A stretch of DNA of 64,000 nt from Trichoplax sp. H2 (GCA_003344405.1 NOWV01000001.1:1302001-1366000); one strand, 5' to 3'. Shown: positions 7,569-16,700, counted from the first letter of the stretch. Notes: generated from the letters alone by a model not told the origin. Numbers and translations: made by a program.

Positions 7569-10500
7569 TTAAGGTTCATTTTTTTTCGGTATTGATATCG
7601 GTAATAAATTTTTTCCTTTTCCTTTACCTTTTCCTGCAGTCTTCGAAGAATGCTTTACCTAACAAATAACAAAGTTAGAATCAATCATGATTTATGAGTT
7701 ACATTATTACCGAATTCGAACACGAATGAATAAATCAAGATAAAAATGAAAAAGCTATCCTAGTTCATAAAATTTGCGGAACTAACTCGATTATAAATAA
7801 CAACACCACCAGCAGCTAATGTCATTCCGATTGCATTTGCTGAAGTGATAGGATTCCGAAGAATGGCTATTGATATAACTATCACAAAAATCCTTTTAGT
7901 CGCACTTGCTACTGAATAACTTAAGGGATTGATCGTCCATAATATTGTGAAAGCTATTATATTTTGAAGAAAGTTGATGAAACCATTTAGAAATACCAGA
8001 AAGGTGATCCAGTATGGATCTAGGTCCGCATACTAAATTAAAGCAATTTTCTGATCATTAGTTATAGATTGTTTCGTTCATAGCCATTCGTAACTTTAGT
8101 ACAGCCTAATTACTATAAAAGCGTTTCATTTATACAATATGGATATCGTACCGTATCTTTCTCTTCGAGTATAGGCATAACATCAAAAACGAACCAAATT
8201 GGGAGCATCAGGCTAGTAGCACTTCTTGACATGGTATGCAGTAATCTTAAATGATGGACCTTAACATCGGACAAGACCTAGATAGTAGATATAGATATTG
8301 AATTAATCTTTAAGAATTAAGATCGAAGAGTTTTGTAAAACTTAATGAGTATTTTCATAGTGAGAGTGGAAATGTTTATCAGCCATACTATATTATACTT
8401 GTACATATCAAGTATTTGACATTACTGAATTAAGATAAAATTTCAATTCTGTGAAGTCGGTATAATGATTAAGAGATTAAGTCGAGTATAGAATCTACGC
8501 ATTGTTAAAACTTTTATTCTGTGACTTTTTTCATAGCATTGCACTTACTTTTTTACTATAAACGTTTTGTAAGGCAAAAGAAAGCGTTGATAGTACACAG
8601 CTAATTAGGCCGATAATATCAAATTCTATTTCTGTAGCGGTAGCTAACATAACTCCACCAACGATAGGAAGTAAAGATAAGTACTCCTAAAAAAGGTTAC
8701 AATAAGTAAAATGATTAGATCGATAAAAATATTAATCAAACAAACCGTGATAAGTAAGACTATGGTTGGTATTTCGAATCGATATGTCAACAATTCGCTT
8801 ATGCTTAATGAAAATATAGCTGCTAAATGTTAAATATGCACTACAAGATTAGGCATTATAGACTACATAAATTTCATGTCTTTTCATCATATACATCCAT
8901 TAAAGTACATCAATCAGAGACATCTATAGCCACTGATGATACTGCACTAGTGATTTACTGTATGAAGGGATCTATATTTAATATCCTCAAACAAAAGATA
9001 GCGTCCTGTACATTGTTATTGGGAATGCTTTCAGTTTGGATATTTCTTATTAGCTCTATCTAGATATTTTTCTTCTAACAAAGCAATAAATTAGCCTTTT
9101 CCTAATAGCATATCCTAAATATCAATGTATTACATAGCATCCTTAACATTATACGTGTAATAATTTACTTATTGGACACAGCTGTAGTATTTCAGTCAAA
9201 AACTGTAAATATAATATAGTCAGTAGCAGTAGAATTTAAATAACAAGACTGTGTTGCTGCATAGTTTCGAGTAGTGATTCGATATCTAGTAGACAGTACT
9301 ATAAAAAATACGCCTACTTAAACTTGTACGAAGTAGCTTTAATTGGTTACACTTTGTTCTCATATCTATAATGGACGAAACTTAATACAGTAAAGGAACG
9401 TTTACAGTATTTGTATTTACTGGTCTCTATGCACAATATATTCATACAGTATGAACTGTGCTTGCTTGTTACTAATAGTGCTGACGTCTTGCGATATGAT
9501 AGACACTGCTGCAGTCCAGCATGTACACATATTTGTACTATATAAATATATATCGCAAACTTTTACTCCCGAGGATTTAATCATCCCTAGCGGACTCTTT
9601 TGCTATATTATATCGTCATTGATGTTATGATTTGCTTACAATTTAGAACTAGTATTCTATACTTATGCGTTATTAAGTATGGTAGCAGTATGATTTTGAA
9701 TATCAAATTTCATGCTTTACTGTGCTTATCTTCCTATCTGTACACTAATGCCATCTCTCTAATACCCTTGGGCATTATTAGAAGACGCAAAGTTTATTAA
9801 TTTTGATAATATAATGCTTCAAAAAATAAAATGTACAAATTATCAAAGTATTAGATCCATATAAGGATTATTTAGCAATACTGCTAAAATTGTCGAAGAA
9901 AACATTTTCTTAACGTTTTCTTTAAAAAATCTTTTAAGTTGGATATTTTTCAAGCATACACTTGTCGAGTGACTGATGTCTGCAAGCCGAAATTTAAGTG
10001 ATCAATACATAGCATCCAGCACTTTCGTGCGCCAGGTATTGACTTGTAAATGGAAAGTAGTAGCCTTCTCTACTCACCTTTACAGTATATGTAGCACCAA
10101 GGACTAGCTTCGCCATAATAACGGTAAAGAAAGGCATTAAAGCCTAGAAGAACATAATAAATGCAATGGAACGATTATAAACATAATATGAAATAATAAT
10201 AAGTGCAAAAAGAAACGAAATATCTAGTCTCAGGATTCATGATTGATATTTTAGCAGTAATCCATATCACGCTTGTCACCTATGTTATTGTACGCTCTAA
10301 AATGGCCTTTTGCGGCTCGTAGTTGCAATTAACCTTATAAAACAAACCATTCATAAGCTGAATACTATTGCGATAAATATACGACAGGCTTCTAGATTAT
10401 AATGAATTTTGTGATAGGTGGATATCTCGTATTTTCAAATACCGTCCATGCGCTATTTCTTAGTACGCAGCATTTAAGTGGTTAGCTAAGCATTAAGTAA

Positions 10501-13500
10501 ATCATATTGCAAGCTATACAGGAACTAAAGTATACCGTATCTTACAAAATCGGATTAGTCTGCAATCTGATGCTGTTATTGGTTATTAAGTGAAATCATT
10601 GTTTGCTCTTTGAGTTAATTATGACAGTATCATTCTACTTTAAGCGTTTATTGTAAAGTATGTACATTAGATATATTTTAATAATTTAATTCACGTCATA
10701 ATGTCGTCCGTATTGGAGCTCAGGTTTATAAATATCAATACTAGCTAGTGATCGTTATTCTAGGTAATGACATACTAGTCTTAAATTTACATAGTGCATA
10801 AAAGTGATGTATCAGAGTCACAATTATTTTGCTGTCGTAGACTGTATACTATAATTGTACTTGCAGAATTATGCCATATATCTATTTATTAAACTTGGCT
10901 ACTAATCTGTCCTTTTTAAAGCAAGTAAGAATATGCAATTAAAACTTTAGGAAGATGAGATCACGGTATTTGATACAACTATTACTATGATTTTCCTCGT
11001 CGAAATAATAAATCAGCATTACGAATGCTTATGTAAGTTGTATTATTCTGAATTAATATTAATTATTTATCAAATACGAAATGATAAACTCATTAATGAC
11101 TGTGACACAATAGACAACAAAATTAGAAATAGCGGTATGCAAAGATCGGAGGTGGTGTACGATGTGTACTATATTGTATTCATAAATTATAAGAAGTATT
11201 TCACCATAACTAGTTATGTATACTCACTTTAACTTTAGTTTCACATGTATGGTTGATTATGGAAGAAAACGATAGCCAAGAGAACATATGCAAAAAAAAT
11301 TCGATAATACTAATTAAGCTTATTAGACACTAGCATATGCTAATTTCATTAATTCAATTTATTTAAATTTAAAATTATAATCGTTACTGTACTATAATGC
11401 AAATATATAATACTGTAATCGTCGCGATTCGGCGATGGCATTTATACACTGATAATTTATTTAAATTTAAAATTATAATCGTTACTGTACTATAATGCAG
11501 AATCGAATAACAATTACAAGCCATATCTATAATTTAATAAGCCGTAAAGAAATTGTATAGTATGCGCATAGTACGTGCATAGCTTTGCAGACAATTGGTC
11601 AGTTAGTAATAGAAATTTACTTTTCTAGATTTAATATTTTGATTTGATAATTTCTACAGCTACGTCAGTAAATGATAGCGCCATAACTTGGGCTTGTAAG
11701 GCACAATAGCTCGCAGGTAAGCAATAGTAGCCAGAGACTCATTCTTCCTTTTATTGGTTGCAATACTGTAGGACCTACAAGTCCATATTACGTAATTGCT
11801 GTCAGATAGGTTTCTTAATGAGAACTGCAATAGTATTATAATACATATAAAAGGCACAGCTCATGTCAACCTTTATATATTATTCTCATAATGGTAAATT
11901 ATATTAATAAATCGGGCAGTTCTAAGCGATCCTGCTGTATTTAGCGAACACTGCTGGCTGTTAACATCATACAATAGTAAGCTTTTAGTGATGTCTGGAT
12001 TATATAAACAGTCAAAAAGAAGGCCGTATTTTACTGCAAATAAACGTTGAGATCTATGCAGTTATACTGACATTAGTGCTCTGCCTAGTACATCCACAGA
12101 AAGATAGATTAACATTCCGTTATTAGGGTTAACATCTTTGTAAAGAACATACTGTATAAAGTAAATTTATTATATCATGATATCTATTGTGCAGAGCTGT
12201 AGGATTTTCCGCATATGGCACGATGTCCTATGAGCTAATATGAATACGTATATGGGTAGGATACTATAGTATCTCACTTTGATTGAGCTTACCGTAAGCA
12301 AAGGCTTAAAGTAACGACTACGCGTAATCTGCATTGCTTAACCTATTCATTTATTTGGCTCACTGAGCTTAGAAAGAAGGCCTACCCGTAAATGGAGTCA
12401 TTCATTCATGAACTATGCAGGAAGGTATCAAAGTCTCATTTTATTACCTTACAATAGAGTCTACCGTATATGATCAGCTCAAAGTACAGTAATATATCAG
12501 CAATGGCTTGCATAAAATGTGAATCTGTTATTTATCATCCTTATAACACCGGATTCTATAGTGCGCGTTCTATTTTATAAATTATAGAAATTGAATCTGT
12601 TAATCTGGCATCTAGAACAAAACAGTTTAAATTAAACACTTTATCAATACCACGTGTATTAAATTAGTCATGGACCGATTAACATAATGCTGCAAATATA
12701 CAACATATGGCTTATTTAAAGATATGTTTTATTTCGTTGCATGCCGGTATTATGTATTCTTAACTGTACGTCTGTAGTGGGTATTTCAACATCGGTTTTA
12801 GCATTTATAACAATGATGTGGACATCTAGAACGTATTTGCAATTTGTATGGTATGATGTCTACATAATCACCTGATTTCTTCTGTGCGTGCAATGTAGAT
12901 GTCGTTTACCGTATAGATAATAATATAATCGGTCATTTTATAAAATGATCGGGCAATTTGTAAAATGACAAATTTTGCGGTCATTTTGCAAAATGACCAG
13001 TATAGGGTAATAATGATGAATAAATTAGATTATTGAAGATGTACCTGTTCAAATTGAACAGTTTGTGTAGCTCAATCTGTACAGATCGGGTCAACTTGAT
13101 GTTAGTAACAGCAAAACATTAGATGAACTACTGGGATTTTAAATGAATCATCATGACCACAAATGTCAAGTCCAGGCATAGCACTATCCTATTTAAATTT
13201 TAGCAGAAATTGATAGCTTCAAGAAAATAGGCCACTGTCTCTGTTGATGTGCCGCTCTATGCATATCACAGATCTACTGCTATTAAAGTCGTTACCTTGT
13301 ACCAGCAAAAGCAATATACAAGTAGATGGATTGTAATGCAAGCTTCAACAGCACTTACCTGTATGTGCATAAGATACAGAAACTTTCCAAATAGCAACAT
13401 GACTAAGTAAAGCACCTAAAATTTTATTAGCCGCTAAAGGAAGGATTTTACTCCAGTACGATTTATAAACAACATAAGGGAGTGAATCGACATGCCAAAA

Positions 13501-13746
13501 TTTGAGCAGTGAACCAAGATAAACCGTTTGCGATACCACTTGGATAAAGGACAAAGTTAAAGGATGAGGCCAATCGCGTAAAACCCATTTACCAACTACG
13601 TTGTTGCTAGCGCTGACAATATACCATGACAAGCAAAGTAAAACAATTTTATATTTTCCCATCTGTTTGGGTTTGTCTGATTTAATATTAGGCGGTAATT
13701 CTTCGCCATCGATATTAGCCTCTGCAGTAAGAGGAGCGGTAGCCAT
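7569..13746 (-). CDS. SLC35E1: SLC35E1-like triose-phosphate/nucleotide-sugar transporter family protein; exons 13746-13359, [11232-11228 microexon], 10143-10078, 8686-8549, 8277-8152, 8032-7787, 7658-7569
   Basis: Spliced translation: ..[14 protein letters not shown](VK)[86 protein letters not shown]... All introns are GT-AG with consistent phases. Confidence 0.88.
11228..11232 (-). CDS. Predicted 5-nt coding microexon (TTAAA) of SLC35E1
   Basis: Minus strand reads aaactaaAG|TTAAA|GTgagta. It bridges a phase-1 donor (ACA G|gt at 13359) to a phase-0 acceptor (ag|GCT at 10143), giving GTT AAA = Val-Lys of the conserved HTVKA motif. Confidence 0.75.
11356..11499. repeat. 46-bp exact direct repeat, two copies 98 bp apart, intronic
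   Basis: aatttatttaaatttaaaattataatcgttactgtactataatgca at 11356-11401 and 11454-11499. Confidence 0.85.
12907..13010. mobile_element. Short MITE-like palindromic element in SLC35E1 intron 1
   Basis: Termini ttaccgtata / tatagggtaa are a 9/10 inverted match. Internal palindromes: ggtcattttataaaatgatc (12931-12950) and the perfect ggtcattttgcaaaatgacc (12979-12998). Confidence 0.5.
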
Positions 13747-16700
13747 ACTTGTTGCCTTGTTAATAAGTAAATGAATTAATTTAATTGTGCGGTAATATGG
13801 GCCTGAAAGTGAGCAGCAGGCCCTTTTAAGGCCACTACACCACAGGACTTAAATGGACCGGTACCATACTGTGTACTTACTGCATTGCACCCTGACTGCA
13901 TCGATCCGTCATTCATTCTACTGTTCCTGCCCAAGCCTGCCATATCCTTCAAACAAATATGTTACTCCGTGCTTGCACTCCTCTGTGTACTGTCAACAAT
14001 AGTTTCTTGCAAGCAATATTTTATTTGGATAGTCTCCTAAACCTTGTATAGTATGCTCCAAATTAGAATGGATGCCAGCTGGTAATGGAAAAGGTAGAGG
14101 CAGTAAAAATCGGACAAATGATATGATTTTCGAGTTCAGGAAGGCTAAATGAGATGGGTTGTTGTAATTTTAATACAGAAAAAGAGAATAAAGTCTTGAT
14201 CATTTATATTCTTTGATCGATTTCATACTTTCACTTTAAGAAAGAAAAATCTCTGTTACTAAATATCGTCAATGACATAAATAACCAATAGCAATCCCTA
14301 GTAACGGATGATTAACGTAATATGAAAAATAATAATTTGAATCAATCGATAGTTTAAGCAAAATTACTCCTGGTATTGCTATTTTCATGTTAATAGAACT
14401 AATTTCTCAGTCATACTGCAGAACATTCAATTGTTGGTATTCCTGTAAGTAAAGCGACGCCATGGTTCGTATGTAAAGTAAGCTTATAGAACGGCGAAAA
14501 ATTCGCTATTAAAGTATGCTGTAGGTGCCATGTTAATGATAGTAGCATCGATTGCGATAGATCATGCCCATCGCCAAATCTAGTCTTAAATATCAGTCAG
14601 TTTCAAATGGATCTTTTACTCTCATAGTACTCGTATATCGAGTAAAGATGAAAAAACGGACTGTACTGTAAGTTTAAGATATTAAATAACATTTCGTGGT
14701 CAATGGATTCATTCTAATGATAATTAAGAAATCATGTTTATATTGAGATATTACAGAAATTGATTTCTGAAAGTTTTTCTTCTAATCACAATGCGGTTGG
14801 CTAATCATTTTTTTTGGCGATGATATACCGCAGGTGGGTTTTGCTATTAGTAATATTTATTTGGACGCTAATGTGGAGTATTTTTACGTAGCATCTTTTT
14901 ATTTGCCAATAAATATCTATACGAATACGAGTATGTACCGGTATGCCTATGTATTACTGATCAACATATCGTACGTTCGTTGAAAAAGGAATTGCCGGCC
15001 GGTATAGACAACACTAGAATTAATTAATGAAATGTGTTTGCATAACCTTTTGTACACACACATTCTCATGATTTAAGCCAGTAAATGATCAATCGTACGA
15101 ACACTAATTCACTAGTACACTAATCTAGTATTCTTGTGGTATGAGAATGGTAAAAGAAAGCAGAATAAGTCCTCTAATTCTATCATTCCCATAATCTTTT
15201 GACGACCAAGACTAATTTTTATAAATATCAATTTTAGACTAGATTCTTCGCTCTACAAGAAGACTCTGTATTGCTAAATGATCCCTTTTTAGGGTATAAA
15301 GATAACGTAATACCCGTATGTACTGTCATGGACAAGAATAATTGGTAATGCCTATTGCTGCAATAACACGATAACTGAGCTATAGCAATCAATGAGTAAA
15401 GGTTTACCGTAGAAATAAATATCACCGTCAAAGCATACAAAAATGTGATATGATCACGCATTCAATCTCTTACTATATTCAAAGCCTAACGTTGGTATAG
15501 CCATGGAAACATCATTATGTTGTTTTGTCACATATGGCAAAATTAACAGACAAAAAATGAATCTTATCATTTAGATCCTTTTTCTTAATTAAGGCCAGAA
15601 TATACTCGTATAGAAATGAAGTTGTTCATACATTGCTCAGCGTATAATATTACCACACTCAGAACAAATTGTTCATTTCAGACTACAGCTTGGAGTTTTA
15701 AAATTTTTCATTCAAGTTATAATTTTAATGAAAAAGTGCAAGTTTTATCAATCTGCAAGCGTAATTATGTATCAGCCTTTCCTTATTAACCTTGAAGTTT
15801 GTAATGCAATATCGAGATAGGTTTAGGTAAATATTTATTTTATATCTGGTACGTGAAGTTGCATCGAGATAAAGATAAAAATAGAAAGCACGTGTACAAC
15901 AGAGTATTTACATAGACATCAAAATTTTGCCGATGGTCTTATATTATGCCACGCATCAATAAATTACGCTGTCCCACTATTGCTTGCTTTAGTTCAATTT
16001 AATTAGTGGCAATGTCTATGGTAGTATTTGAATCCAAAGTTTGCTCCAACAGTTAGAGCATAATATTCCCATTTTATACGCTTTAGTATACGTAAATCTT
16101 GTCACTAAATCGTTCATTCGCTGCATGATAGCGGAAAAAGTTTACCTGAGCGGTTTAGAAACGCTTAATATTGAAAGATTAATCACGCGTATGACTAAAA
16201 GAATGATGATTCTTTCCAAGAAGTGCTGGTACGGCAAGTTGTGATTACGAATTTATTGACATAAAAAAATACGGCAGTGTTCAATGCTTATTCAAGGATT
16301 GGTCTACTTGTAGTACAACATCTGGCATTAAAATCTGTTATTTACTTAATTAAAATTGTTAAGAGGATGAAGCAGATTATCGGAGTATTAAGACTTTTAA
16401 TTTATTAGAATCTAAAAAAAACCTCGAAAAACCATAGTGCGGATTGGTAATCATAATTATACAGTATAATCGAGTTCTTAGTATACTGCATTGGTTGTTT
16501 GATTAATTACGCAATGTGAGCATTTCATTAACATGACCATCATGACTTTATGAATAGTAATTAGGAGTAAATTTACAACAGTATTATTGTATGCCAAGCC
16601 ATGAGTAAAATTAGAGAAAGAGATCCGAAAATAAGATTATCCCATTAAATGGAATAACTGAAAATTATGCTTTAGTATCACACAATATTGTACTGAAATG

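Follow-up and report, generated by a model that had tools for sequence, protein, structure and literature searches.

The stretch of DNA analysed here, 64,000 nucleotides from Trichoplax sp. H2 (GCA_003344405.1 NOWV01000001.1:1302001-1366000; in full length, the window), carries on its minus strand a gene of solute carrier family 35 in which two adjacent, readily recognized coding exons do not fit together. Exon 1 ends in phase 1 (..CAT ACA G, then GTAAGT), and the next obvious exon, exon 3 in the numbering used below, starts in phase 0 (ttctag-GCT TTA ATG CCT), so that joining them directly would shift the reading frame. The question raised by this locus is how the frame is restored in the mature transcript. 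An earlier note on this DNA had proposed that a five-nucleotide exon, TTAAA, in the intervening sequence supplies the missing bases. The evidence described below indicates that TTAAA at 11232-11228 is, with high probability, a genuine coding exon of the SLC35E1 orthologue, delimited by two introns that lie 5 nt apart, and constitutive on all evidence seen.

The gene was identified by its protein matches. Exon 1 alone matches the Pfam profile PF03151 (TPT) with 64.6 bits at a cut-off of 30 (E 1.3e-17), and a search with exon 1 of a collection of 5.8 billion sequences gave one long protein with 100% identity, P0003, which is TRIADDRAFT_28036 of Trichoplax adhaerens. This protein is named solute carrier family 35, has a precomputed PF03151 assignment, and maps with its 304 residues to the window as six blocks. 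The closest named relatives are SLC35E1 homologues with 45-51% identity; by these matches the gene is taken to be the Trichoplax adhaerens SLC35E1 orthologue, TRIADDRAFT_28036.

The coding part of exon 1 comprises 388 nt (13359..13746, minus strand, as are all features of the gene) and starts with the ATG at 13746-13744, with RNA contigs extending to 13764. It is followed by intron A (11233..13358; 2126 nt, GTAAGT..AG), which interrupts a valine codon in phase 1, by the five-nucleotide exon (11228..11232), and by intron B (10144..11227; 1084 nt, GTGAGTA..TTCTAG), which lies in phase 0 between a lysine and an alanine codon. Exon 3 (10078..10143; 66 nt) is in turn followed by GTGAGT. The final G of exon 1 and TTAAA together read GTT AAA, encoding Val-Lys. 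The minus-strand flanks of TTAAA, AG at 11234-11233 and GTGAGTA at 11227-11221, allow only one GT-AG parse, and with these canonical flanks and a length of no more than 15 nt the element belongs to the class of ultra-short microexons. On direct reading the site, the exon coordinates, the phases and both intron lengths are as the earlier note had given them. Its statement that the flanking introns are far longer than most introns here is valid with respect to three of the remaining four introns of the gene (271, 119 and 128 nt), but not with respect to the fourth, of 1391 nt.

Restoring the frame is by itself a weak constraint. In the interval between exon 1 and exon 3, 82 pieces with flanking AG and GT and a length of 3k+2 (2 to 62 nt) keep the frame open, nine of which are 5 nt long; frame restoration is thus easily achieved, and it is the exact encoding of VK that singles out 11232-11228. 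The Pfam TPT profile points to the same two residues, as its positions 2-96 fall on exon 1 and positions 99-119 on exon 3, with exactly two positions missing between them. The pattern AGTNAARGT, which describes any 5-nt exon encoding Val-Lys in this context, has 11 matches on both strands of the window, compared to a mean of 5.52 in shuffled sequences, of which 3 in 100 reach 11. One match is found in the 3215-nt interval, where about 0.14-0.28 would be expected. When set against chance in this way, the sequence by itself is only suggestive of a five-base exon. The reality of the exon is decided by the RNA contigs.

Nineteen sequencing runs are listed for positions 7700-13800, and four of them, from four studies (X8, X10, X11 and X14), in which the share of words fitted an exon-only signal, were examined. 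All four consist of assembled contigs; X14 is recorded as RNA, and X8, X10 and X11 were taken to be RNA by guess. The contigs of X8, X10 and X11 follow the exons and leave out introns that on the plus strand are bounded by CT..AC, which is expected of spliced RNA (intron parts lacking contigs are given no meaning), while X14 covers neither exon 1, the microexon nor exon 3 and is hence uninformative on the junction. In each of the three former runs, representing three studies, one contig joins 10143 to 13355 with a single T in between; in record 11 of X11, for example, the first 67 contig letters fall on 10077-10143 and letters 69-478 on 13355-13764. Since exon 1 truly ends at 13359, five contig letters separate 10143 from 13359 in this alignment. 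On the plus strand the genome reads TTAC at 13355-13358, and an inserted TTTAA, the reverse complement of TTAAA, predicts a loose T followed by TTAA with one mismatch. Exactly one unlisted mismatch is present in each of the exon-1 pieces: the total is 1 in X10 and X11, and 2 in X8, where one of the two is the listed change at 13471.

Among the nine open 5-nt AG..GT candidates in the interval, only TTAAA fits this five-letter pattern. It is the sole candidate that ends in A and differs in its first four letters by at most one change from GTAA, and also the sole one that encodes VK. The junction check proposed in the earlier note, that transcripts should carry TTAAA between exons 1 and 3, is therefore answered by contigs from three runs whose five letters fit TTAAA only, and the different insert or frame-restoring site that would have spoken against it finds no support in the contigs, as the other eight 5-nt candidates fail the combined letter and mismatch pattern. 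A direct 13359-10143 joint, which would represent the skipped form, is absent from the junction-spanning contigs, all three of which include the five letters; contigs can, however, hide rare forms.

Several considerations weigh against the assignment of TTAAA as a constitutive exon. The junction letters are known as one letter plus a mismatch count, from which TTAAA follows by exclusion. The RNA label of X8, X10 and X11 is a guess, and the data are assembled contigs rather than reads. A processed DNA copy is conceivable as the source of the contigs, although it, too, would preserve the spliced arrangement. Finally, contigs drop rare variants, and 'constitutive' here means that no skipped form was seen.

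The two residues encoded across the splice junction are invariant in the family. The sequence YAHTVK is present in all 120 relatives compared, followed by Ala in 117 and by Gly in 3, and V102 and K103 are unchanged in 20 of 20 aligned diverse members. The invariant motif, YAHTVKA, lies in transmembrane helix 4, and its Val-Lys is encoded by TTAAA together with the G of exon 1. The frame-required exon supplying these residues, as the earlier note had put it, is thus borne out by the RNA contigs, the invariance of the motif and the uniqueness of VK among the candidates. A possible function of the lysine is suggested by the red-algal triose-phosphate/phosphate translocator (PDB entry 5y78), which aligns with an E-value of 2e-24 and in which K103 pairs with chain residue 115, in the segment VAISFTHVVKSAEPVF. 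According to the available part of its description, the crystallized construct starts at residue 91, and the phosphate is bound ionically by Lys204 jointly with Lys362 and Arg363 (bioRxiv 10.1101/169169). With a construct start at 91 and one leading residue, chain residue 115 corresponds to Lys204, and no other lysine is nearby. By residue numbering, K103 would therefore be the counterpart of the phosphate-binding Lys204, in which case the microexon would supply a central substrate-binding lysine of the transporter.

The origin of this exon arrangement was approached by comparison with metagenome contigs, which were scanned with the family alignment. This yielded 57 loci, with lineages that are guesses from the best named matches; the YAHT motif was found by a regular expression in 51 of them (L019-L023 and L025 remained unmatched). 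The coding sequence runs uninterrupted into VKA at 39 of the 51 loci, which is no evidence for the absence of the intron, as many of the contigs appear cDNA-like and one search pattern (VSYAHTVK) finds uninterrupted copies only. Eleven loci have G-GT directly after the threonine codon (ACN), at the same place and in the same phase (1) as intron A of Trichoplax. They represent about four lineages: six termite-like loci with 83-88% identity to named termite or cockroach proteins, three ant-like loci with about 84% identity, L037 and L054. At eight of the eleven (L037-L043 and L054, the last judged by eye because its VKATAP escaped the flag expression) the intron measures 57-125 nt and the next exon begins with T-N-AAR-GCN (VKAT..). 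In 8 of 8 cases this exon is exactly 71 nt long and is followed by GT. The three near-identical ant-like loci L044-L046 also have the phase-1 intron, but their following exon was not found within about 4 kb; either a long intron or a very small next exon that escaped detection would account for this.

The insect-like loci L037-L043 and L054 thus share with Trichoplax a phase-1 intron after ACN G, a phase-0 intron 71 nt further on, and the motif VKA..P.FTV in between. They differ in that their 71 nt form a single exon, with introns of 57-125 nt, whereas in Trichoplax 5 + 66 nt are parted by the 1084 nt of intron B, with an upstream intron of 2126 nt. Because 5 and 66 nt likewise add up to 71 nt, with introns at both ends in corresponding positions, the microexon can be described as the 5' sliver of an old 71-nt exon. 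On this comparison the microexon exists because two introns lie five nucleotides apart, one of which, intron A, is old and common to Trichoplax and insects. For intron B, a gain on the placozoan side seems somewhat more likely than a loss in insects. The distribution of the loci limits this preference, as the insect-like loci comprise about four lineages of one clade and would be explained equally well if insects had lost intron B once. A further point against a gain comes from L033, the remaining one of the 51 loci, of unassigned lineage and with about 50% identity to insect proteins, in which an intron is inserted a single base past the Lys codon (L033:600-760; GTTAAAG-GTAGGT .. CAG-CGACC), 1 nt 3' of the intron B position. 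It hints that an intron near this position may predate the placozoans; sliding or an independent gain may account for it.

These same data sustain the strongest of the alternative explanations, according to which the microexon dates back to the animal ancestor, with two old introns of which intron B was lost in insects. All loci without intron B look insect- or arthropod-like, so that one loss could explain them; the L033 intron could be a slid version of intron B; and the presence of intron A and of the intron after the 71-nt exon in both Trichoplax and insects indicates that the gene structure in this region is old. Against an ancestral microexon, no second example of a 5-nt exon was found among the metagenome loci, and L033 lacks the phase-1 intron A and hence a microexon. 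The human SLC35E1 gene consists of six ordinary exons, which also argues against it. An ancestral microexon is accordingly a possibility of some substance, though a doubtful one, and a sliver cut from the old 71-nt exon by a placozoan intron B remains the preferred explanation.

Two further observations concern the start of intron A. Its first ten bases after ..ACAG (13349-13358) are GTAAGTGCTG, and they are identical in the four termite-like loci L038-L041; even though the intron is old, this identity is probably due to the consensus donor and chance. Among other placozoan proteins of near, longer and shorter lengths, only P0003 and P0123 were found, the latter covering no more than exon 1 and the beginning of intron A. 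P0123, a protein of 143 residues from a placozoan relative, reads from exon 1 through the donor (..HTGKCC) and has the same intron A start.

An exon of a few nucleotides cannot hold the U1 and U2AF/U2 complexes at the same time. The donor of the microexon, AAA-GTGAGTA, is near consensus. The acceptor is the weakest of the five RNA-confirmed acceptors scored: the last 20 intron bases before its AG (-3..-22) have a pyrimidine fraction of 0.40, compared to 0.55-0.75 for the others, where the row for intron D is approximate because its boundaries were two bases off. A pyrimidine-rich tract is nevertheless present in a displaced position (11255..11302, minus strand), with a fraction of 0.71 at -23..-70, in agreement with the tract that the earlier note had placed about 25-70 nt upstream of the AG. 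Further upstream are two putative branch-point motifs of the form yTnAy (11313..11326, minus strand), whose A residues (11314 and 11323) precede the microexon by 82 and 91 nt; they are the only ones in the final 110 nt of intron A, and an AG-free stretch of 75 nt (11309-11235) lies directly downstream of them.

According to the available portions of two reports, short microexons with a weak acceptor and a strong donor tend to lose their downstream intron first (PMC10250204, PMC8831610). From this precedent, and because a 5-nt exon is too short for both complexes, a stepwise mechanism is proposed as the likely one for the microexon. The strong donor AAA-GTGAGTA would be used first, with removal of intron B; this would rebuild the ancestral 71-nt exon, the weak acceptor of which would then be used together with the distant branch point to remove intron A. 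Two observations limit this proposal. Partly spliced intermediates, which would report on the order of intron removal, were not seen in the contigs, and RNA folding of 171 nt around the microexon (-22 kcal/mol, z = +0.51, with 131 of 200 shuffled sequences folding as well) gives no structural signal. Intron A further contains an exact direct repeat of 46 nt (11356-11401 and 11454-11499), located 120-270 nt upstream of the microexon. A blastn search of introns A and B against the window detected this repeat only and no second copy of either intron, so that an origin of the introns from a transposon finds no support within the window.

The second alternative is that the microexon is a regulated cassette, the skipping of which shifts the frame and switches off the transporter by nonsense-mediated decay (NMD), as the earlier note had suggested. 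The geometry of the gene would allow this, as the shifted frame would end with a stop at codon 174, within exon 4 and 445 nt ahead of the last exon junction, which is the classical arrangement for NMD dependent on the exon-junction complex. The acceptor of the microexon is weak, and weak acceptors and long flanking introns, both of which are present here, often accompany regulated exons. Against regulation stand the three junction-spanning contigs from three studies, all of which carry the five letters and none the direct joint, with the reservation already made for rare forms. In the accessible part of one comparative study, non-bilaterians, among them Trichoplax, are moreover described as showing exon skipping significantly less often than bilaterians do (PMC6142364). 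The eMIC domain is likewise described as having arisen in bilaterian ancestors, as far as the available text of the source goes (PMC8797185). This part of the earlier note, which had invoked the eMIC programme as bilaterian, stands; nothing at this locus calls for eMIC, since no TGC occurs within 57 nt upstream of the microexon, the nearest (counted by eye) being 57 nt away, so that the UGC typical of eMIC targets is missing. No evidence was thus found for skipping, an NMD switch or a link to eMIC, and a regulated cassette is considered very improbable. If it were true, and an animal lacking neurons and eMIC used skipping, with the resulting stop at codon 174, as a dosage switch, control of dosage by microexons would predate the bilaterians.

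Weakest of all is the explanation that the mRNA takes its five letters from a source other than 11232-11228, such as alternative splice sites of exons 1 or 3, some other position, or a misassembly of the window. In its favour, the aligner laid four of the five letters on 13355-13358, at the start of intron A, and the junction letters are known indirectly. An exon 1 extended by GTAA, however, would give zero mismatches and would require an A preceding exon 3, a position at which the genome carries G; one mismatch and a plus-strand T are present in all three contigs. The intron contains no AGTNAARGT site besides AG-TTAAA-GT, which has the strong GTGAGTA donor and encodes precisely the invariant VK, and of the 11 matches in the window it alone is AGTTAAAGT. 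Such a source is exceedingly improbable. The assignment of TTAAA as a genuine exon is therefore retained.

The remainder of the gene, on the minus strand, comprises exon 4 (8549..8686; 138 nt), exon 5 (8152..8277; 126 nt), exon 6 (7787..8032; 246 nt) and the coding part of a seventh exon (7569..7658; 29 codons and a stop). The borders of exons 5 and 6 are those of the contigs of X8, X10 and X11, which join 8152 to 8032, while TRIADDRAFT_28036 uses sites 15 nt further on at each side, so that its exon 5 is 15 nt longer and its exon 6 begins 15 nt later. A loose contig end at 7785 that matches 7627-7656 points to a further intron of 128 nt (7786-7659) and to exon 7, absent from the public model, which would add 29 codons. 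The public model reads past 7787 into this intron and stops early, at 304 residues compared to 352 for the RNA-supported frame; the latter, which starts at 13746 and includes the microexon and the RNA-supported joints, falls in the size range of the relatives. The public model therefore appears to be in error where exons 5 and 6 are joined, and again at its C-terminal end. It also begins at an internal methionine (13662). Contigs of three runs all terminate at 13764, on the 5' side of an in-frame ATG (13746), and P0123 begins with the same residues as the open reading frame from this upstream methionine; the start is therefore probably at 13746, 28 codons upstream of the annotated one. Within intron C, X8 has low-depth contigs (9785-10085 and 9159-9395) with several base differences and a deletion of 11 letters at 9905, which may stem from RNA not yet spliced, or from the DNA of a slightly divergent haplotype in that sample.

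The microexon itself is correct in the public model. The expectation of the earlier note that gene predictors would probably miss it does not hold here, as TRIADDRAFT_28036 already reads SYAHTVKALMPFF (HTVKA). The exon is thus implicit in a public protein model and is a further case of the known ultra-short exons, not a new kind of regulation. What is added here are modest points: the confirmation of the exon by RNA, the proposed link to a substrate-binding lysine, and the proposed origin from a 71-nt exon. An exon of 5 nt between introns of 2.1 and 1.1 kb is included by the spliceosome of a basal animal whose lineage presumably lacks the microexon enhancer of bilaterians, and this exon carries a residue that is indispensable to the transporter family. 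The locus would also illustrate the birth of an exon, by a second intron placed five bases from an old one, and it offers a usable natural substrate for studying the order of intron removal at ultra-short exons. For annotation, its value lies in the distinction between the microexon, which is right, and the start codon, exon 5/6 junction and C-terminal exon, which appear to be wrong.

Ultra-short coding microexons have been reported earlier in animals, and neural microexons are mostly multiples of three. The microexons dependent on SRRM3/4 (eMIC) resemble the Trichoplax exon, as far as the available parts of the sources describe them, in being very short and in combining a strong donor with a weak acceptor and a set-back pyrimidine tract (PMC8797185, PMC10250204). 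For exons of such a size the accepted difficulty is a steric one, in that U1 and U2 cannot assemble on them simultaneously. In contrast to the eMIC-type exons, the Trichoplax exon shows no sign of regulated inclusion, has no UGC near its acceptor, and shifts the frame when skipped. Within the placozoans, a micro exon of a single base is described for the mitochondrial cox1 gene, where it was recognized through RNA data (PMC5436844, consulted in excerpt). That micro exon differs from the TTAAA exon in being mitochondrial; it involves organellar introns and trans-splicing and is unrelated to spliceosomal splicing. In the partially available literature on microexons in Trichoplax and placozoa no nuclear placozoan microexon was found described, nor was a microexon in SLC35E1.

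The closest parallel is provided by land plants, in which constitutive ultra-short coding microexons of 15 nt or less have been catalogued, so that such exons are known outside the bilaterians (PMC8831610; this and the following comparisons draw on the accessible part of that report). Like the Trichoplax exon, the plant microexons consist of a few bases between canonical AG and GT, encode conserved residues within a domain, and break the protein when omitted. Their flanking introns are thought to be removed sequentially, the downstream one usually first, which is the same order as proposed here for Trichoplax. The Trichoplax exon differs from its plant counterparts in its placozoan host, in the kilobase length of its flanking introns and in the presence of its residues in an existing public model. 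It also differs in that its origin can be read by comparison, as the division of an old 71-nt exon by an extra intron.

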